A stretch of DNA of 64,000 bases from Rickettsiales bacterium. GTDB taxonomy: Bacteria > Pseudomonadota > Alphaproteobacteria > Rickettsiales > UBA998. Below the pieces are notes generated by a model, which saw only the letters and a list, made by a program, of their open reading frames with translations, did not search any database and was not told where the DNA came from. Made by a program: the position numbers and the translations under genes. The stretch spans positions 385,472 to 449,471 of the forward strand of contig JAMWZD010000001.1 in assembly GCA_024304995.1 (NCBI GenBank). Direction: 5' to 3'. Numbering within the stretch: position 1 is the first letter of the stretch; each line of letters starts with the position of its first letter. Below, in pieces: positions 1,895 through 59,599 of the stretch.

Positions 1895-1973
1895 GTCATA
1901 CTGAACGTAGTGAAGCATCTAATGATACCTAAAAAAAATAGTAAGATAGATTCTTCCTCACCCTCAGAATAAC
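1895..1973. repeat. Palindromic REPIN/MITE-like element, copy A (degenerate right arm)
   Basis: Left arm gtcatactgaacgtagtgaagcatc (1895-1919); right arm agattcttcctcaccctcagaataac (1948-1973). Lies between convergent gene ends, and the right arm supplies the last codons and stop of the SDR gene. Confidence 0.6.
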
Positions 1974-2683
1974 GATGCCGATAACCGCCCCCCATGCGGA
2001 GCGTTTGCTTGCATCGCACGCACAAACAGGTCTGTTAATGCCAGATCATCTGGCTTTAGCAGGCTTTCTTTTTTCTCACTCGGAAAGGCTTGCGCGCGCA
2101 TGTCTGTTGCCACAATCGCGGGGTCAATGAGATTCACTCGCATGGCGCTATCTTCACGCTCCACAGCGTAAGTCATGGCTAAACTTTCCAATGCATGTTT
2201 GCTGGCAGCATATGCCCCCCAAAATGGCGCGTTCATCTGCGTGATGCCTGAGGTGACAAATGCCACACGCGGCGCATCACTTTGCATTAATAACGGATCA
2301 AGAATACGCAGCAACCGCCAGTTCGCCGTTACATTCACTGCCATAACTTTTTCAAACAGTTTTGTGTCATGATGTGTCAGTGGTGTCACCTGCCCTAAAA
2401 TGGCGGCATTACCGATGAAGCCGTCAATCCTGCCAAATTTCTGCAGCAGTCCAGCCCCCAATGCATCAATCTTGTCCATCTCCGTTAAATCTAACGGAAC
2501 AATTGTTGCGGGTTCACCTGTAATTTCCTGAATCACATCATCCACTGCTTCCAGTTTCGCCACGTCACGTGCCACCAGCACGCAGTGCGCTCCTTCGCGC
2601 GCCAGCCGTTTGGCAACGCCCGCGCCAATCCCGCGGGACGCGCCTGTGATTACAATAATTTTGTCTTTAAGTTCTTTTGTCAT
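1964..2683 (-). CDS. Short-chain dehydrogenase/reductase (SDR) family oxidoreductase
   Basis: ORF 1964..2722. The Met at rc 2681-2683 gives MTKELKDKIIVITGASRGIG (TGxxxGIG Rossmann motif), followed by YAASK (catalytic YxxxK). Confidence 0.85.
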   Translation of the reverse strand: MTKELKDKIIVITGASRGIGAGVAKRLAREGAHCVLVARDVAKLEAVDDVIQEITGEPATIVPLDLTEMDKIDALGAGLLQKFGRIDGFIGNAAILGQVTPLTHHDTKLFEKVMAVNVTANWRLLRILDPLLMQSDAPRVAFVTSGITQMNAPFWGAYAASKHALESLAMTYAVEREDSAMRVNLIDPAIVATDMRAQAFPSEKKESLLKPDDLALTDLFVRAMQANAPHGGRLSASLF

Positions 2684-2774
2684 AACGGCAATATAGCGCC
2701 TAACACATAACCCGACCAGCAAAGAAGAACGGTTTTTAATATCTTTTTTACATGCAAGGCAGTAAAAGGCGATA

Positions 2775-9066: not shown

Positions 9067-9252
9067 ATGGAGGAAACATTGAGTACATTATCACACATCC
9101 ACAGTTTACAGGAAAAACGCGACCATTTGAGGTTAGCCATCAAGCAGGAAATGGCATCCGCCTCGCATAATGACCTCAAAATAGCTTCGATGAAAAAGAA
9201 GCGACTCCACTTAAAAGATGAAATTCAGATGCTGCAACGCAAAGCATCCTGA
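9067..9252 (+). CDS. DUF465 (YdcH-like) small protein, divergent paralogue
   Basis: Internal ATG at 9067 gives MEETLSTLSHIHSLQEKRDHLRLAIKQE...ASMKKKRLHLKDEIQMLQ, the same family pattern as 8617..8823. Confidence 0.6.
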   Translation: MEETLSTLSHIHSLQEKRDHLRLAIKQEMASASHNDLKIASMKKKRLHLKDEIQMLQRKAS

Positions 9253-9272
9253 ATCTGATACCCTTAAATATA

Positions 9273-9362
9273 AGACCGACGCAATACGACAAGAATTATG
9301 GTGAGCCATCAGATTGCTCACAGCTTTATCAGATTTTCATGTCGCATTGCGTCGGCTTTTTG
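9273..9362 (+). terminator. Long compound hairpin followed by a T-run (terminator or small structured RNA)
   Basis: Outer stem 9276-9291 (ccgacgcaatacgaca) pairs with 9340-9355 (tgtcgcattgcgtcgg), 15 of 16 bp. Inner hairpin gtgagc/gctcac at 9301-9321. Followed by cttttt at 9356-9361. Confidence 0.45.
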
Positions 9363-9367
9363 TTGCT

Positions 9368-9441
9368 ATCATTCTGAACGTAGCGAAGAATCCTTGTTCA
9401 TCTGTCGCAGATAGTAATGTGATATTTCGCTTAATGTAACA
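9368..9441. repeat. Palindromic REPIN/MITE-like element, copy B (right arm degenerate/shortened)
   Basis: Left arm atcattctgaacgtagcgaagaatcc (9368-9393). Possible eroded right arm gtgatatttcgcttaatgtaaca (9419-9441), abutting the rlmE stop. Confidence 0.5.
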
Positions 9442-9443
9442 TC

Positions 9444-10166
9444 TTATATTTTAAACAGCTTTTCCATCCCTTCACGAAGCCCCATCGCAATCACGTACGT
9501 CTCGGGGGATTCTTTGCGGCTGGATTGGGGTTTGAAGTGGGCGACCTTGTCAAAACGCTGCTTCATATCCGTCAACATATTCGCTTCCGTGCCGCCCTGC
9601 CGCACTTTGCATACAAACGTACCACCAACGGACAATACTTCCAGCGCTAATTCATATGCCAACTCACAAAGCAAAATAATGCGCATATGATCGGTTGAAG
9701 AATGTCCTGTTGTATTTGGTGCTAAATCGGACAGCACCAAATCCACGCGATCATCCATCAGTGCGTGAATGCGCTCTGGAGCATCGTCATCATTCATATC
9801 ACATTGCAGAAAATTGACACCTGCAATCGACGGCATATCTAATATATCCACCGCCACAACAGACGGGTTTTTGGCAGAAGACTGTACCGCCTTCGCTGCA
9901 ACTTGGCTCCATCCGCCAGGGGCTGCGCCCAAATCCACCACATGCATCCCCTGCTTCATCAGGCTGAATTTGTCGTCCAGTTCAATTAATTTATACGCGG
10001 CACGGGAACGATACCCATCGCGTTTGGCTTGCTGCACGTAAGGGTCATTTAACTGACGCTGCAACCAGCGCGTGGAAGACGTTTTGCGCCCACGCGCGGT
10101 TTTCACACGAACCGTAAGATCGCGCTGCCCAGCAATGATGGGTGGTTTTGGCGGTTTTTTTGGCAT
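9444..10166 (-). CDS. rlmE: 23S rRNA (uridine2552-2'-O)-methyltransferase RlmE/FtsJ
   Basis: RWLQRQLNDPYVQQAKRDGYRSRAAYKLIELDDKF...VVDLGAAPGGWSQVA is the canonical FtsJ N-terminus and SAM motif. Confidence 0.9.
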   Translation of the reverse strand: MPKKPPKPPIIAGQRDLTVRVKTARGRKTSSTRWLQRQLNDPYVQQAKRDGYRSRAAYKLIELDDKFSLMKQGMHVVDLGAAPGGWSQVAAKAVQSSAKNPSVVAVDILDMPSIAGVNFLQCDMNDDDAPERIHALMDDRVDLVLSDLAPNTTGHSSTDHMRIILLCELAYELALEVLSVGGTFVCKVRQGGTEANMLTDMKQRFDKVAHFKPQSSRKESPETYVIAMGLREGMEKLFKI

Positions 10167-19861: not shown

Positions 19862-20806
19862 TTAGACGAGTCCGTGTTCCACAAGATATTTATCCGCTTC
19901 CAACGCTGCCATGCACCCTGTGCCAGCGGCAGTAATTGCCTGACGATACACTGAATCCTGCACATCCCCTGCTGCAAATACACCTGCAATATTGGTCTTG
20001 GTGCTATCTGGCTTTGTTACCAGATATTGTGATTCATCCTTGTCCAGACCATCGAATAATGCCGTGTTCGGGTCATGCCCGATCGCCACAAATGCGCCTT
20101 CAACAGGCAATTCGGAAATTTCACCAGTGTTCACGTTCTTCAGTTTCAGCGCAGTGAGTGATGGCGGGTTATCTGTCCCCAGAAATTCTTCCACTACTGT
20201 GTCCCAGATCACATCAATTTTTTCGTGATTAAAGAGCCTCTCCTGCATCACTTTTTCGGCACGTAATTCATCACGGCGGTGAATGAGGGTCACTTTGGAG
20301 GCAATCTGCGCAAGGAATAATGCTTCTTCCACCGCACTATTGCCACCACCAATCACAGCGACTGGCTTATTGCGGAAGAAAAACCCATCGCACGTGGCGC
20401 AGGCAGACACACCAAAATTCTTGAACTTGTTTTCACTGTCCAGCCCCAGCCAGCGCGCAGACGCACCCGTAGCAATAATGAGTGCTTTGCCTTCATAAAC
20501 ATCGCCTGAATCACCCTTGCAGGTGAATGGTGAGCTATGCATAGAGACTTCCAGAATGCTGTCATGAAAGATCTCCGTACCGACATTTTTTGCCTGCGCT
20601 TCCATTTGCTCCATCAGCCAAGGTCCTTCCACAGGCTCTGCAAAGCCAGGGTAATTCTCAACATCGGTGGTGATCGTCAACTGCCCACCAGGTTGCATCC
20701 CATGCACCATGATGGTGGAATGTCCTGCCCGCGCAGCATAAATGGCGGCGCTGCACCCTGCTGCACCTGAACCTAAAATTAAAACGTCACATTGATGAGT
20801 GGTCAT
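19862..20806 (-). CDS. trxB: Thioredoxin-disulfide reductase
   Basis: GSGAAGCSAAIYAAR FAD motif, redox-active CATCDG, and GGGNSAVEEA NADPH motif. Confidence 0.95.
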   Translation of the reverse strand: MTTHQCDVLILGSGAAGCSAAIYAARAGHSTIMVHGMQPGGQLTITTDVENYPGFAEPVEGPWLMEQMEAQAKNVGTEIFHDSILEVSMHSSPFTCKGDSGDVYEGKALIIATGASARWLGLDSENKFKNFGVSACATCDGFFFRNKPVAVIGGGNSAVEEALFLAQIASKVTLIHRRDELRAEKVMQERLFNHEKIDVIWDTVVEEFLGTDNPPSLTALKLKNVNTGEISELPVEGAFVAIGHDPNTALFDGLDKDESQYLVTKPDSTKTNIAGVFAAGDVQDSVYRQAITAAGTGCMAALEADKYLVEHGLV

Positions 20807-20846
20807 CGTTACCTGCCTTATTGCAAATCATAGTGTGGAGATATTC

Positions 20847-20969
20847 GTCATTCTGAAAGAGCCTTGAGCGCAGCCACCCGTGGGGTGCGCGTACATAAAA
20901 CAACTGAAGAATCCATGTCGCCGTATGTCTCGGGCGGTGAGATGGATTCTTCGCTGCGCTCAGAATGAC
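20847..20969. repeat. Palindromic REPIN/MITE-like element, copy C (long variant, left arm interrupted)
   Basis: Left arm fragments gtcattctga...gagcgcagc...tgaagaatcc. Right arm ggattcttcgctgcgctcagaatgac (20944-20969). Lies between trxB and the peroxiredoxin gene. Confidence 0.75.
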
Positions 20970-20974
20970 AGTTA

Positions 20975-21577
20975 TTATAAACTTGAAGCGTTTTTCTCTA
21001 GGTAAGAGGATACGCCAGCTGCATCTGCTTTCATGCCTTCTGCACCTTCTTTCCAGTTTGCTGGGCACACTTCGCCATGTTCTTCATGGAAGTTAAGTGC
21101 ATCCACCATGCGAATCGCTTCGTCAACATTACGACCAAGTGGAAGGTCATTCACCACCTGATGACGCACCACGCCTTCTTTATCAATCATAAATGTGCCA
21201 CGGAATGCGACGGACTTGTTCAACAACACATCGTAATCTTTAGCGATTTTCTTGGTAATATCAGCCACCATTGGGAAGCCTACTTCACCAATACCACCTT
21301 TATTGATTGGCGTACCGCGCCACGCTGCATGAGTGAAATGTGAATCTACGGACACACCAATCACTTCTGCGCCGCGTTTTTTAAATTCTTCCAGACGGTT
21401 ATTGAAGGCAATGATTTCTGATGGACACACAAATGTGAAATCCAAAGGCCAGAAAAACACAACGCCAATTTTTCCTTTAATATAATCCGAAAGATTGAAA
21501 TCATCGACAATTTCACCGTTGCCAAGCACGGCTGAAGCTGTGAAATCAGGTGCTTTTTTTCCTACTAATACGCTCAT
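20975..21577 (-). CDS. Typical 2-Cys peroxiredoxin (AhpC/Prx1 subfamily)
   Basis: Peroxidatic DFTFVCPSE and resolving-Cys region GEVCPANW. 200 aa. Confidence 0.9.
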
Positions 21578-27960: not shown

Positions 27961-28038
27961 GTCATATTGAGCGTAGCGAAATATCCAGAGACTCTTGCGC
28001 AAGCGGTGACATGGATTCTTCACTTCGTTCAGAATGAC
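27961..28038. repeat. Palindromic REPIN/MITE-like element, copy D (intact, 78 bp)
   Basis: Left arm gtcatattgagcgtagcgaaatatcc (27961-27986); right arm ggattcttcacttcgttcagaatgac (28013-28038); 26-nt spacer containing cttgcgcaag. Confidence 0.85.
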
Positions 28039-48552: not shown

Positions 48553-48632
48553 GTCATACTGAGCGCAGCGAAGTATCCAGAGCGGCTTGCGCCTGACGGA
48601 GAGATGGATTCTTCACATTCGTTCAGAATGAC
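48553..48632. repeat. Palindromic REPIN/MITE-like element, copy E (intact, 80 bp)
   Basis: Left arm gtcatactgagcgcagcgaagtatcc (48553-48578); right arm ggattcttcacattcgttcagaatgac (48606-48632). Confidence 0.85.
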
Positions 48633-48904: not shown

Positions 48905-50215
48905 ATGAAATCACAAAAAATTATTATTCGGTTTGATCAGGTTTGCGATCAGAACAACGGCGTAATCAAGCGCTACATCGGATTTGTGCAAGCTAAATAC
49001 TTAATAGACTTAATAGAGATAGCTAATCTTGATGCTAACCCTAGATCATCAAAAGTTGGTTCTGTAACTGATGATATTATTGAGAGCATAGAAAAAACTA
49101 CTGATATTTTCCCCTTCAAAACTAAAGGTATATTAGTGTCTGTTTCAAAGCCTCCAAAAGAGCTAGAGCGAAAACGGTTTGAATTTGAGTTTGAAGATAA
49201 TCAATTTGATGGCATATTAGATGGTGGACATAATACTTTAGCCATCGCTATTTATATATTGTATAAAGCTGTCGAGGATCATAAAGCGATTAGAAAAATC
49301 AAAAGATGGCAAGATTTAGAAGAACGATGGATTGATTATAAAGATGAAGTTCAAAAAATTAAAGATACTTTAGATTTTCTTGTACCTATTGAAATATTAG
49401 TTCCAAATGACCAAACAGAAGAAGTGGTAGAACAATTTAAAAAGTCGATATTAGATATATGTGCGGCGCGTAATAATAATGTCCAACTAACAGTTGATAC
49501 GAAAGCCAATGCAGCAGGACATTATGAAATAATAAAAGATGTTGTTGATCCCACACTAGAAAAAGAAATTATTTGGAAAACCAATACGGAAGGACGTATT
49601 CCTGTAAGAGATTTGGTTGCTTTAACCTGGGTGCCATTACTGGAGTTAGAGTTGGAAGGCAAAGTTCCGACCATATCACCAGTTCAACTTTACAGTTCAA
49701 AAGCAAAATGCATGCAAAATTTTGTAAAGCTAATGGAGAGCCCGGATGTTTCAACCGAAAAAGAAGGTAGATATACGTTGAAAAATAGTCAAGTTGAGAG
49801 TGCTTTAAAAATGTTGGAGGACATGCCAAAACTGTATGACTTAATATACGAACTATTTCCAGGCGCTTATAATAAGCATGGAGGAAAGTTTGGACGTATA
49901 AATGCTGTTAAAGAAAAGCAAAAAAGTCAGCCAAAAACACCTTTCTATTACAGAGAAGTTGATATGAGCGTTCCAGAAGGTTTTATTGTACCACTAATTT
50001 ATGGTACATCAGCTCTGATTACTTCAAAAAACGGACGGCTCGCTTGGAAAGAAGATCCTGAAAAATTTATAAGAAAAAACATTAGTAATATAATTGCTAA
50101 TTATAAAACATTACTAGAGGCATTTAATTTTGATCCTCAAAAAGTAGGAAAAAATAGTGGCTCTTATACTTTAGCAAAACAGCAATTTGAGTTTTGCTTA
50201 TTACAAAATCAGTAA
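48905..50215 (+). CDS. AIPR-like (abortive infection phage resistance) protein
   Basis: 436 aa. LDANPRSSKVGSVTDDIIESIEKTTDIFPFKTKGILVSV followed by ILDGGHNTLAI matches my recollection of the AIPR pattern (NxR...I..T...F...NNGIT...NGxQT). GGAG lies 8 nt upstream of the ATG. Very AT-rich. Confidence 0.55.
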   Translation: MKSQKIIIRFDQVCDQNNGVIKRYIGFVQAKYLIDLIEIANLDANPRSSKVGSVTDDIIESIEKTTDIFPFKTKGILVSVSKPPKELERKRFEFEFEDNQFDGILDGGHNTLAIAIYILYKAVEDHKAIRKIKRWQDLEERWIDYKDEVQKIKDTLDFLVPIEILVPNDQTEEVVEQFKKSILDICAARNNNVQLTVDTKANAAGHYEIIKDVVDPTLEKEIIWKTNTEGRIPVRDLVALTWVPLLELELEGKVPTISPVQLYSSKAKCMQNFVKLMESPDVSTEKEGRYTLKNSQVESALKMLEDMPKLYDLIYELFPGAYNKHGGKFGRINAVKEKQKSQPKTPFYYREVDMSVPEGFIVPLIYGTSALITSKNGRLAWKEDPEKFIRKNISNIIANYKTLLEAFNFDPQKVGKNSGSYTLAKQQFEFCLLQNQ

Positions 50216-57019: not shown

Positions 57020-57045
57020 GTCATTCTGAACGAAGTGAAGAATCC
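57020..57045. repeat. REPIN/MITE-like element copy F, left arm
   Basis: gtcattctgaacgaagtgaagaatcc, 15 nt after the sucA stop. IS200 sequence starts immediately after it. Confidence 0.8.
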
Positions 57046-57703
57046 ATAAGATAATAAGGAACTACCGCCTATGGCGGTACGGCTAGCGTAGTTATACAAA
57101 TTATGCAAGAAACCTCTTTGCTTGAGCCATTGGAGTGGTTTGAGGAATCAAACAAAGAGGTTTTTATTATGTCAGAAATTAGAAGATTATCTCACAGTCG
57201 CTGGGAATGCAATTATCATGTGGTATTTATTCCAAAATACCGCCAGAAACGGATATATGGCGATGTTCGCAATGAATTACGTCAAGTGTTTCATGATCTG
57301 TGTCACCGTAAGGAATGTCGCATTATTGAAGGTCACCTGATGTCCGACCATGTGCACATGCTTATCAGCATACCACCGAAATATTCTGTAGCACATATAG
57401 TAGGTTACTTAAAGGGGAAGACCGCCCTACATTTAGCGCAGAAATATGGACGTAGGAGGAAATATCGAGGCTATAGTTTCTGGGCGCGAGGGTATTTTGT
57501 ATCTACTGTAGTTGCAGACGAACAGGTCGTTAGACGTTACATTCGCAATCAGGAGAAAACGGACAAGCAGTACGACCAAATGTCCTTGTTCACTGAACCC
57601 AATAATAGTAAGTAACAAAACCACTTCCAGTGGTGCAAGCAAAGCGTTACAGACCTCCACCTCTGGTGGAGGTCATTGAATCTTTCGGTTTGTTTTAAGC
57701 TGG
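57046..57703 (+). mobile_element. IS200-type insertion sequence (IS200/IS605 family, tnpA only); ends approximate
   Basis: The Y1 HUH transposase gene is flanked by subterminal hairpins taccgcc-tat-ggcggta (57063-57079) and gacctccacc-tct-ggtggaggtc (57652-57674). No tnpB. Confidence 0.75.
57169..57615 (+). CDS. tnpA: IS200/IS605 family Y1 (HUH) transposase TnpA
   Basis: From ATG 57169 (GAGG 8 nt upstream): SHSRWECNYHVVFIPKYRQK...SDHVHMLISIPPKYSV...GYLKGKTA...FWARGYFVSTV. Close in pattern to Salmonella IS200 TnpA (HTRWNCKYHIVFAPKYRR...DHIHML...FWCRGYYVDTV). Confidence 0.9.
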   Translation: MSEIRRLSHSRWECNYHVVFIPKYRQKRIYGDVRNELRQVFHDLCHRKECRIIEGHLMSDHVHMLISIPPKYSVAHIVGYLKGKTALHLAQKYGRRRKYRGYSFWARGYFVSTVVADEQVVRRYIRNQEKTDKQYDQMSLFTEPNNSK

Positions 57704-57708
57704 GAGAT

Positions 57709-57736
57709 GGATTTTTTGCTGCTACCTTTAAATGAC
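57709..57736. repeat. REPIN/MITE-like element copy F, degenerate right arm
   Basis: ggattttttgctgctacctttaaatgac, preceded by gagat exactly as in copies C and E (gagatggatt 10-mer shared). About 20 of 26 matches to the copy C right arm, with a 2-nt indel. Confidence 0.55.
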
Positions 57737-57787: not shown

Positions 57788-59599
57788 GTGATGAGTGAAC
57801 AAGCCAGCATAGCCAATATTGATATTCAGCCAGATGACCCTGAATGGCTGGTGCTAAAGAAATTTTGTGAGACATTTGATTCTAAACGCATGAAAGAAAA
57901 ATACGCCTGTTCTAAAACTCACAAAATACTTGATGATAATGCTTCTCGCAGAAACGGCTTTATTTCTTGGAATTTTGTATGCTTTTTTACTGTATCGAAT
58001 GAAGCGCAACAACGTATTGCTCCTGAACTAAAACGCTGGAGCCCTTGGCTTTATTCAATATTAGAAAATGTTCTAAATGACCCTTCATACCAAAATGATC
58101 TTAATAATTATTATAACTCATTTATAGATATTCGTAACAAAAGCTACACTTTGGATATGGCAATCTCTATAATTGAAGGAAAGCTTAATAAACATAGCTT
58201 AGATTATGAAATGCCACCGCTTTCACGAATATGCAATATAGAAACTAAATATTTATTTAAGGATGGTACACAGTTAGATTTTTCTGATTACATATTTTTA
58301 TGTGAATTAGGTTTTTCTGGCAACAAAAACAATCCCTATCGCGCCATAGAAGAAAAAAAAGAATCAAATATATTTAAAGCAGCGACGAAACATACCAAAA
58401 ATTTTAGTTTAAAACGCAATTACTGTTATGGTGGGATATATTTCGGTGTATGCGGATTTGAAAAGATAAATCTAAATGGTCTTCATACAACAAATCTTCA
58501 CTTTATATGCAATGAAGCTAACTATATAACGTTGGCTAATATCAAATGTCATTGGTTTAAGCACGAAACTGACAACACTAATAGTATAGATAAATTAGAA
58601 AAAACCGATATTCCTTTCTTATTTATACATAATATATCAAATAAATTTGAACATATAGATATATCTAATCGGCGCATTCGATTATCAATAGATAGTAACA
58701 CGGAAGTCAGAACGTTAAATTTCTTGAATGTAGTTATTGAGAATGACGTTCAATTTGCAAATTTAGAACTTGAGCACGCAACATTTAGCAGTGTTATATT
58801 TGAATCTGATTTTTCTTTTTTGCAAAACACCGTAGAGAAAACTACATACTTCAGGCATTGCAGCTTTAAAGAATCCTCTAATTTCAAAGGCAGTAAGTTT
58901 TCATGTAATGAACTAAATGAAAAATCATTATCCAATAGAGATGAATTGCTGTCTCCTTCTTTCATCAATTCAAATTTTCAATCGGTTCTAAATTTGAAAG
59001 ACACTAATTTTCATGCTCCTCCTCATTTTGAGGGAGTAGAAGCAGATTGTGTGTTATTCGATGAAAAGTCATCCTTCATCAACCACCCTAGCAAAGACCC
59101 AGAACTTGCTGCATCAGCATGGGCATCGTTAGTGCGGCTGGCAGAGCATACGGGCAATATGCGGATGCGTCAGTTATTTCACGCACGCATGATGGAAAAC
59201 GAAAAACGTATGGCAAGCGAAAAAAGTCATGGCTTTTTCTATCATGTATTTCGTATATTAGGAAGCGGCAGAAATACGCTAGTTCCTATAGCATTCTTGC
59301 TTTTGTCTTTTATATGCTTTGGATTGATTTATATGACAAGCTATCTTGCGATAACACCTGAAAAGATAGCGCCACTATATGCAAATGCATTTGATAATGG
59401 ATTTGCACTATCTATGCAGCACACCGCACCCTTCTTTCCAACTGAAAAAGCACTATTGAAAAATTTGCTTCTCCCCTTCAAAGAAAGTCCTATAAACTAT
59501 TTCATCAATTTAGCCCGCTTCGTTCAAACGATTCTCTCAATAGGCTGCATCTTCATGTTCGGTCTCTCCCTCCGCAACCGCTTCCGCATCAAAACCTAG
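57788..59599 (+). CDS. Degenerate pentapeptide-repeat (beta-helix)-like protein with C-terminal transmembrane helices
   Basis: 603 aa. The middle region has F/L-periodic repeats (VQFANLELEHATFSSVIFESDFSFLQNTV..TYFRHCSFKESSNFKGSKFS). C-terminus is ILGSGRNTLVPIAFLLLSFICFGLIY...ILSIGCIFMFGLSLRNRFRIKT. GTG 57788 or ATG 57791 start. AT-rich. Confidence 0.55.
   Translation: MMSEQASIANIDIQPDDPEWLVLKKFCETFDSKRMKEKYACSKTHKILDDNASRRNGFISWNFVCFFTVSNEAQQRIAPELKRWSPWLYSILENVLNDPSYQNDLNNYYNSFIDIRNKSYTLDMAISIIEGKLNKHSLDYEMPPLSRICNIETKYLFKDGTQLDFSDYIFLCELGFSGNKNNPYRAIEEKKESNIFKAATKHTKNFSLKRNYCYGGIYFGVCGFEKINLNGLHTTNLHFICNEANYITLANIKCHWFKHETDNTNSIDKLEKTDIPFLFIHNISNKFEHIDISNRRIRLSIDSNTEVRTLNFLNVVIENDVQFANLELEHATFSSVIFESDFSFLQNTVEKTTYFRHCSFKESSNFKGSKFSCNELNEKSLSNRDELLSPSFINSNFQSVLNLKDTNFHAPPHFEGVEADCVLFDEKSSFINHPSKDPELAASAWASLVRLAEHTGNMRMRQLFHARMMENEKRMASEKSHGFFYHVFRILGSGRNTLVPIAFLLLSFICFGLIYMTSYLAITPEKIAPLYANAFDNGFALSMQHTAPFFPTEKALLKNLLLPFKESPINYFINLARFVQTILSIGCIFMFGLSLRNRFRIKT

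Follow-up and report, generated by a model that had tools for sequence, protein, structure and literature searches.

Six palindromic elements in a Rickettsiales genome: head-to-head pairs of a CGTC-tagged hairpin, with a GIY-YIG single-stranded DNA nuclease as the probable partner

The stretch of DNA analyzed in this study, referred to throughout as the window, comprises 64,000 nucleotides of a Rickettsiales bacterium (assembly GCA_024304995.1, contig JAMWZD010000001.1, positions 385,472 to 449,471 of the forward strand) and carries six short palindromic elements, designated copies A to F. A prediction made earlier from the sequence alone (the original prediction) had proposed these as one dispersed family, and the family is real: the arm consensus GTCATWCTGARCGNAGYGAAGWATCC has seven matches in the window at ≤3 mismatches (1895+, 9368+, 20944-, 27961+, 28013-, 48553+ and 57020+) and no match at this threshold in any of 100 dinucleotide-preserving shuffles, and a shorter arm core has eight matches against 1.0 expected. 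A relaxed scan of the window returned no copies beyond these six. All six are head-to-head pairs of arms with spacers of 26–29 nt, close to the 26 nt or so originally given, and two of them, D (27961–28038) and E (48553–48632), are complete, with spacers that are visibly related.

In five of the six copies a stop codon is at most 16 nt away. Copy A begins 9 nt past the stop of an ATPase-inhibitor-zeta gene and lies between this gene and a convergent SDR gene (1964..2722, minus strand). Its left arm (1895..1920, plus strand) has the CGTC head at 1894 and the stem ATACT/AGCAT, with one mismatch, and its right arm (GTTATTCTGAGGGTGAGGAAGAATC, 1948..1973, minus strand) is degenerate, yet retains 5/5 outer-stem pairs and overlaps the final 10 nt of the SDR gene, stop included. 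The left arm of copy B (9368..9393, plus strand) has the head TATC in place of CGTC, and the remnant of its right arm, which extends to about 9441 and ends 2 nt from the ftsJ stop, is hardly recognizable. Copy C (20847..20969) lies 5 nt past the ahpC stop, between this stop (20975) and the trxB start (20806); its right arm is perfect (20944–20969, minus strand) and its left arm is interrupted by inserted sequence of ∼8 and ∼31 nt (20860–20908), the longer insert of which holds a small hairpin of its own (CACCC-CAC-GGGTG, minus strand). Copy D, 11 nt past the dapD stop, consists of a left arm (27961..27986, plus strand) with the fully compensated stem variant ATATT/AATAT, a 26-nt spacer (AGAGACTCTTGCGCAAGCGGTGACAT, 27987..28012) resembling that of E, and a right arm with the head TGTC (GTCATTCTGAACGAAGTGAAGAATCC, 28013..28038, minus strand). 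Copy E lies between divergent genes, enolase and an open reading frame (ORF) without a family match (48905–50215, 436 aa, no Pfam match); its left arm (48553..48578, plus strand) has the stem variant ATACT/AGTAT, and its right arm (48607..48632, minus strand) has a 1-nt insertion in the loop region.

Copy F starts 15 nt past the sucA stop with a left arm at 57020..57045 (plus strand), and its degenerate right arm lies at 57709..57736 (minus strand; GGATTTTTTGCTGCTACCTTTAAATGAC on the plus strand), so that the two arms are 663 bp apart. The adjoining 603-aa ORF (57788–59599) has no Pfam entry in the contig annotation. Two Logan contigs from the same organism (L121, SRR19707674; L122, SRR19707681) break exactly at the left arm of this copy, starting CCGTCATTCTGAACG..., as would be expected were the arm present in many copies in the genome. 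The positions originally reported are thus largely borne out, including the closeness of A, C, D and F to stop codons, the divergent setting of E and the contribution of copy A to the end of the SDR gene. The spurious ORF 20787..21068 that was said to read through copy C also exists, on the minus strand ('...VILSAAKNPS...'), and a plus-strand ORF through the same copy reads '...ILRCAQND...'. The arms therefore yield spurious ORFs, as well as false N- or C-terminal extensions, in annotation.

Each arm can be written as (C/T)GTC - A NNNN - GA - RC - GNA - GY - GA - N'N'N'N' T - CC(A), that is, an unpaired (C/T)GTC tag, a 5-bp stem that opens with A-T and then T-A, tandem G.A/A.G, an R-Y and a C-G pair, a GNA triloop and a CC(A) tail. 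Among the 11 window arms that could be read, the head tag is CGTC in seven, TGTC in two (the right arms of C and D), CGTT in the right arm of A and TATC in the left arm of B. The good arms all open with AT... and close with ...AT, after which comes CCAG, CCAT or CCTT, CGTCATACTGAGCGCAGCGAAGTATCCAG being an example, and arms of this G.A type can be counted with the pattern GTCANNNNGARCGNAGYGANNNNTC.

The small hairpin originally proposed within each arm is borne out by covariation. Across many phyla, 152 exact-pattern matches have an R/Y pair of G..C in 110 cases, A..T in 38, A..C in two and G..T in two (Fisher p = 6e-31); the search pattern left both positions free, so this covariation is not biased by how the arms were collected. 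The loop base, on the other hand, can be any of the four (A 65, C 40, G 24, T 23). Arms lying next to GIY-YIG genes (see below) were gathered with stem pairing left unfiltered, and 95 of these 119 show full complementarity at the four free stem positions, falling into eight stem variants. In a set of 126 arms, 91.6% of cells are paired compared with 21–53% in slid controls, double-sided changes number 95 compared with 11–21, a level reached by none of 500 shuffles, and head positions G3, T4, C5 and A6 are each at least 90% conserved. The manner of collection biases none of these three tests of pairing. Compensated stems within the window are ATTCT/AGAAT, ATACT/AGTAT and ATATT/AATAT, and other loci have ATTCT/AGAAT, ATCCT/AGGAT, ACCCT/AGGGT, ACTCT/AGAGT, ATTCC/GGAAT and ATGCT/AGCAT; the left and right arms of one element often have different stems, each compensated internally.

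On the complementary strand the G.A pairs become C.T, and the hairpin therefore forms on only one strand per arm. The inversion of the arms gives each DNA strand one such hairpin, its tag facing outward. What is under selection is the single arm, as a one-strand hairpin, not the pairing of arm with arm, and this within-arm, one-strand compensation points to recognition as single-stranded DNA (ssDNA) rather than as a long RNA hairpin. A hammerhead-like reading of CUGA...GAA was also considered and was dropped on inspection, the core G8 and A9 being absent.

Repetitive extragenic palindromes (REPs) have been divided into super-families by their tag, GTAG or CGTC (Di Nocera, De Gregorio and Rocco, BMC Genomics 2013, PMC3733652). 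The CGTC REPs have an unpaired CGTC or TGTC head (variant CCTC), a stem starting with two A-T pairs and a CCA tail; they occur mostly as head-to-head dimers, often heterodimers, with 20–100 bp spacers, mainly in alpha-Proteobacteria, in intergenic sites that are mostly downstream of coding regions, and they "apparently lack a dedicated transposase" (PMC3733652). The window elements share the head, the A-T start of the stem, the CCA tail, the head-to-head and often heterodimeric arrangement, the alphaproteobacterial host and the intergenic position downstream of genes. The ATPase inhibitor zeta subunit and the relatives of dapD mark the host as an alphaproteobacterium. Head tag, stem start, tail and head-to-head pairing together identify them as CGTC-tagged REPs, which are equivalent to the Ssn-related motifs (SRM) described more recently (Chenal et al., Nat Commun 2025, PMC11893778). 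The latter work concerns the Neisseria repeat NTS (NTS/dRS3), CGTCATTCCCGCGMAVGCGGGAATCYRG, which, like the SRM related to it, flanks ssnA, a gene for a single-domain GIY-YIG protein of 94 aa; binding of SsnA to the motif requires ssDNA, its cut lies just upstream of the motif, and it is inactive on double-stranded DNA, RNA and the reverse strand (PMC11893778). As with the window arms, the SRM is an oriented hairpin with an unpaired (H)GTCAT head, a stem with ATxC... at its start and an ATCC(A/G)G tail, and it likewise occurs in hundreds of intergenic copies with a wide spread across phyla. A GIY-YIG gene (∼94 aa) flanked by the repeats is common to SRM and to arms of the G.A type, at 71% in PMC11893778 and in 56 of the 80 loci collected here.

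The difference lies in the inner stem, which in the G.A type is GA-RC...GY-GA with a 3-nt GNA loop and in SRM is a clean G+C stem with a 4-nt loop. The published SRM expression, HGTCWYN(0-2)YYVSBRHN(0-5)WNVSBRGN(0-2)RNCYNB (PMC11893778), matches only one of 80 loci with an Ssn-like gene, whereas the G.A-type pattern matches 56, so that surveys based on that expression probably undercount SRM-Ssn pairs. The expression does match the canonical hairpins of Azospirillum lipoferum, Sinorhizobium meliloti and an alphaproteobacterial relative of the window with a 76% identical dapD (L207, GCA_028279475.1, JANQNR010000011.1), whose canonical form, CGTCATACCGGCGTAGGCCGGTATCCAG, has the same head and tail as the window arms; in this relative a canonical CGTC head-to-head dimer with 8-bp stems and 4-nt loops (2414–2481 of L207) lies just upstream of dapD. 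Going by their sequence, the window elements appear to be a G.A/GNA sub-type within the CGTC-REP/SRM super-family, the kind and the partner enzyme of which have already been described. The main texts of PMC3733652 and PMC11893778 contain no description of this sub-type. It was found in roughly 18 lineages among the matches listed, compared with five phyla for the published CGTC REPs (PMC3733652).

Clustering of all ORFs within 400 nt of arms at 120 genome loci gave a single recurrent family other than housekeeping genes, a GIY-YIG protein of 93–100 aa with Pfam GIY-YIG as its only domain. Such ORFs lie between or beside arms in four different lineages (L002, L017, L062 and L109, the hosts being Saccharibacteria, Gracilibacteria, Ignavibacteriales and one further genome), and in three of these four genomes the ORF lies between a left and a right arm. 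A protein-first scan of metagenomes listed 80 loci encoding relatives 52–73% identical, 56 of which have a G.A-type arm; a plus-strand arm lies ≤200 nt upstream of the gene in 29, a minus-strand arm downstream in 29, and both in 12. The L002 protein shares 46% identity (E = 4e-16) with the product of an N. gonorrhoeae ORF at the ssnA locus, where 11 NTS copies surround the ORF within 2.7 kb. The sequence concerned (L316, NZ_CP119142.1:1880519-1883185) comes from a Neisseria gonorrhoeae chromosome of 2.17 Mb, which PLSDB lists among its plasmids, and its ssnA-like frame lacks an in-frame ATG where the start is expected, an ATG close by being in another frame, so that it may be frameshifted. The arm-linked proteins have no specific model in NCBIfam and only weak matches among PDB sequences (UPF0213 entries 1zg2, E = 0.017, and 1ywl, E = 0.57, and SLX1); the partner proteins of SRM are assigned to CDD family cd10448 (PMC11893778), and the weak similarity to UPF0213 would fit a separate family.

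The Ssn homologues of Azospirillum lipoferum 4B and Sinorhizobium meliloti have canonical CGTC hairpins on their flanks, whilst that of Planktothrix agardhii plasmid p1 is flanked by G.A-type arms with a compensated inner pair, GT..AC in place of GC..GC. On the A. lipoferum plasmid AZO_p3 (L318), the gene has a canonical CGTC dimer on each side and is situated between sufB and sufC, inside an essential operon; on P. agardhii p1 (L317, NZ_LR882964.1:18247-19713), the Ssn-like WP_083616022.1 is encoded between an MmeI-type restriction-modification gene and the DISARM gene drmA. The earlier view that the family has no established mobilizing enzyme is out of date in this sense, that SsnA is the demonstrated interacting enzyme of the family (PMC3733652; PMC11893778), an association reproduced here for arms of the G.A type.

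Comparison with relatives gives evidence of gain. Three syntenic relatives have dapD genes 89, 84, and 76% identical to that of the window (the nearest named dapD relatives, at 72–73%, are from Micavibrio, Kordiimonas and Rickettsiales metagenome-assembled genomes), and in these three the gene after dapD follows at 9 nt, at 7 nt or with an overlap, compared with a spacer of 112 nt in the window, 78 of them element. At the site of copy C, the ahpC-trxB spacer is 57 nt in the two closest relatives, with a small G+C hairpin of its own and no arm, and 168 nt in the window, 123 of them element. Arms of either type are absent from 40 kb of these two closest relatives. Since both sites are empty in syntenic relatives, copies C and D were gained in the lineage of the window. 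The original description of the elements as non-autonomous and mobile stands insofar as the copies contain no enzyme of their own and two of them are insertions relative to relatives.

The alternative that survives best, although we consider it unlikely, is that the elements act at the level of RNA, as terminators or mRNA-stabilizing hairpins in the manner of E. coli REP and bacterial interspersed mosaic elements (BIMEs), with no dedicated DNA enzyme. Their position at gene ends would agree with this, as would the argument that many REPs are transcribed (PMC3733652) and the folding of some whole elements (copy C as RNA, -55 kcal/mol, z = -6.1; copy A as RNA, z = -2.45; copy E as DNA, z = -2.4 to -3.0). 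Closeness to stop codons, however, is largely due to the shortness of the native spacers (7–9 nt at the D site in relatives, and 7–57 nt in relatives overall), and so follows from where insertions are tolerated; copy E, moreover, is in a divergent promoter region. What compensation preserves is the self-complementarity of each arm and not complementarity between arms, and heterodimers such as ATATT/ATTCT weaken the long hairpin, copy D having z = -0.5 as DNA and -1.1 as RNA. The unpaired tag and the G.A/GNA features are strand-specific, the arms have no T-tract, a terminator scan made for copy B only (9200–9500) found no terminator-like site, and SsnA does not bind RNA (PMC11893778). Of the original REP/BIME reading, the head-to-head hairpin pairs therefore stand, whereas a role at mRNA ends is possible, if unlikely.

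Far less probable is a REPIN/RAYT system, in which the arms would be REPs mobilized by a domesticated Y1 (HUH) transposase, the REP-associated tyrosine transposase (RAYT), with the gene in copy F being that RAYT. The general likeness is considerable, as REPINs and E. coli REP/BIME also consist of small tagged hairpins inverted into a non-autonomous unit (REPINs being inverted hairpin pairs with a short spacer, PMC3337134), and in REPIN/RAYT a small dedicated nuclease, encoded by a gene with the repeats on its flanks, likewise recognizes the hairpins in ssDNA form. Copy F itself has a REP-gene-REP layout with a Y1 transposase gene, which was overlooked when its two arms, here confirmed, were first reported. 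The tag in REPIN/RAYT and E. coli REP/BIME is nevertheless GTAG, as in RAYT-associated REPs (PMC3733652), whilst that of the window is CGTC, and a RAYT is a Y1 HUH transposase, whereas the partner of CGTC REPs and SRM has a GIY-YIG fold.

The gene in copy F belongs to a nested insertion sequence of the IS200 family (57048..57681, plus strand), with its own subterminal hairpins (ACCGCCTATGGCGGT on the left and CCTCCACCTCTGGTGGAGG on the right). Its 148-aa Y1 HUH transposase, TnpA (57169..57615, plus strand, within a longer 170-aa ORF starting at 57103), scores 146 bits on the IS200 model NF033573 (cut-off 55) and 1.5e-38 on Pfam Y1_Tnp PF01797, but only 40.7 bits on the RAYT model (cut-off 80), and has thousands of ordinary IS200 relatives. 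A metagenome contig (L123) encodes a transposase 83% identical to it, in an element that shares 81% DNA identity over 57048–57681 and the same left and right hairpins but is without arms; homology stops at 57048 and 57681, leaving the right arm and 27 nt of residual spacer (57682..57708), which is a normal spacer length. No TnpA homologue was found by tblastn in the 120 arm-bearing genome loci (844 kb) or in 105 arm-bearing viral loci (934 kb). As in other IS200/IS605 elements, the insert has a Y1 TnpA and subterminal hairpins, has no terminal inverted repeats and was inserted just 3' of a hairpin, 2 nt beyond the foot of the left hairpin of copy F; an unrelated G+C hairpin also precedes the L123 element, which lies directly 3' of it, a hint that hairpin feet are preferred for insertion. 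Given the RAYT score below cut-off, the ordinary IS200 relatives, the arm-less copy and the normal residual spacer, copy F is not a REP-RAYT-REP unit but an ordinary palindromic element with a nested IS200, a passenger in one element that stands outside the repeat family and is not its mobilizer. The search for a RAYT or IS200 partner that the original prediction had in mind is thus not supported, this being the only Y1 transposase found.

Less probable still is a classical MITE (miniature inverted-repeat transposable element), in which the arms would be the terminal inverted repeats of a deleted DDE-type insertion sequence, spread by cut-and-paste with target-site duplication. Size (78–123 bp), terminal inverted repeats, dispersed intergenic copies and presence or absence among relatives are all as would be expected of a MITE, but no target-site duplication or flanking direct repeat is seen at copies A, C, D, E, and F, no DDE transposase lies between arms in ∼300 loci, and the only recurrent gene between arms is that of the GIY-YIG nuclease. 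In addition, each supposed terminal repeat is itself a covarying hairpin, something that is not required of cut-and-paste elements.

The distribution of the arm is wide, as the original prediction had supposed. With one genome taken per bacterial and archaeal species, an exact scan for the 25-mer GTCATTCTGARCGNAGYGAAGAATC gave at least 120 matching stretches, and the matches listed represent roughly 18 phylum-level lineages; by our own arithmetic, ∼0.02 chance matches to a 25-mer would be expected in 596 Gb. The lineages among these matches include Nitrospirota, Nitrospinota, Chloroflexota, Acidobacteriota, Bacteroidota, Ignavibacteria, Chlorobiales, Planctomycetes, Verrucomicrobia, Omnitrophota, Armatimonadota, Fibrobacter, Treponema, Caldisericales, clostridial Firmicutes, Saccharibacteria, Gracilibacteria and alpha-, beta-, gamma-, and delta-proteobacteria. 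The 120 genome loci contain 62 convergent arm pairs, with spacers mostly of 4–142 nt, and junk peptides of the predicted kind ('EILRFAQND', 'ILRCAQDD') occur in ORFs of these loci. The same pattern is present in 105 stretches of IMG/VR viral contigs (L211–L315), one of which, L300, has the 25-mer and encodes an Ssn-like protein. Some genomes and viral contigs (L108, L109, L263, L289) hold tandem arrays of arms or of whole units of ∼140 bp, with nine exact matches in 9.8 kb in L263 and three matches 30 nt apart in L289. Searched for as a text string in the full-text literature, the arm sequence gave nothing but unrelated primers and plasmid sequences.

That near-identical 25-mers in very distant phyla reflect part of a universal gene, be it for tRNA, rRNA or a conserved protein, is scarcely credible, and a tRNA-derived or protein-coding origin, which the original prediction had named as what would overturn it, is ruled out by the Rfam, ARAGORN, ORF and covariation evidence: at gathering thresholds Rfam reports only three tRNAs and nothing at the elements, a permissive Rfam scan of copy D gives only a meaningless snoRNA match (E = 3.4), ARAGORN detects just three tRNAs, all unrelated, ORFs crossing the arms are short, run in both orientations and overlap real gene ends, and the loop base is free while stem changes are compensatory rather than synonymous.

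We therefore consider it likely that the window elements are head-to-head CGTC-REP/SRM hairpin dimers, with a cognate single-domain GIY-YIG nuclease of the Ssn family as their likeliest ligand, and that they are enzyme-less derivatives of arm-ssn-arm units. The Ssn of Neisseria and Wolbachia requires ssDNA for binding to the hairpin, and its cut falls a few nt 5' of the tag (PMC11893778). An Ssn of the host would recognize the purine-rich strand of an arm when DNA becomes single-stranded, during replication, repair or the entry of incoming DNA, and would nick 5' of the tag; such nicking, directly or through repair and recombination, would underlie the spread of the dimers. The arm-ssn-arm units of other genomes look like the enzyme-carrying form, and the short dimers of the window would be derivatives without the enzyme that inserted into short intergenic spacers, any effects on mRNA 3' ends being a side effect of position. 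Anatomy, covariation, the link to Ssn in other genomes and the sites empty in relatives are direct observations, and from these we infer that an Ssn enzyme of this genome may recognize the arms and, rather than recombination or another enzyme, may spread them.

Several points weigh against this interpretation. The stem of the window arms (5 bp, tandem G.A and 2 bp, with a 3-nt loop) is unlike those of the published families CGTC-1 to CGTC-4, which have 8–9 bp stems with at most one mismatch and loops of 4–5 nt (PMC3733652), and the SRM expression has no match in the window, where the arms need 2–5 substitutions to fit it. No ssn homologue was found by tblastn in the 64 kb of the window. Nearest-neighbor folding of a single arm gives -1.9 kcal/mol with z about 0, no better than shuffles. 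Nearest-neighbor parameters probably undervalue G.A/GNA motifs, and with single-arm folding being uninformative, the structural argument rests on covariation. As the arms are inverted, there is one cleavable site per strand, which means that a simple single-strand excision of the IS200 kind is not obvious, and Ssn is not known to move these repeats. The NTS-ssnA-NTS layout resembles an insertion sequence, with mobility not shown (PMC11893778).

With these reservations, the orphan repeat of oddly wide distribution can be replaced by a named and testable system, CGTC-type REP hairpins and Ssn nucleases, in which each new pair of hairpin and enzyme is a candidate sequence-specific ssDNA nuclease tool. 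The real interest lies in whether a GIY-YIG nuclease moves the repeats, and the two clean pairs of filled and empty sites bear on what moves CGTC REPs. A bolder and more tentative proposal, which we regard as possible though on balance doubtful, is that arm-ssn-arm is a class of autonomous mobile element undemonstrated in bacteria, mobilized by a GIY-YIG ssDNA nuclease of ∼95 aa, of which the window dimers would be non-autonomous derivatives. If this were true, natural transposition would account for the sites at dapD and ahpC that are filled in the window and empty in relatives, and the presence of one 25-mer in roughly 18 lineages among the matches listed, including the candidate phyla radiation (CPR), and in 105 stretches of viral contigs would reflect repeated horizontal spread, with tight co-evolution of enzyme and hairpin.

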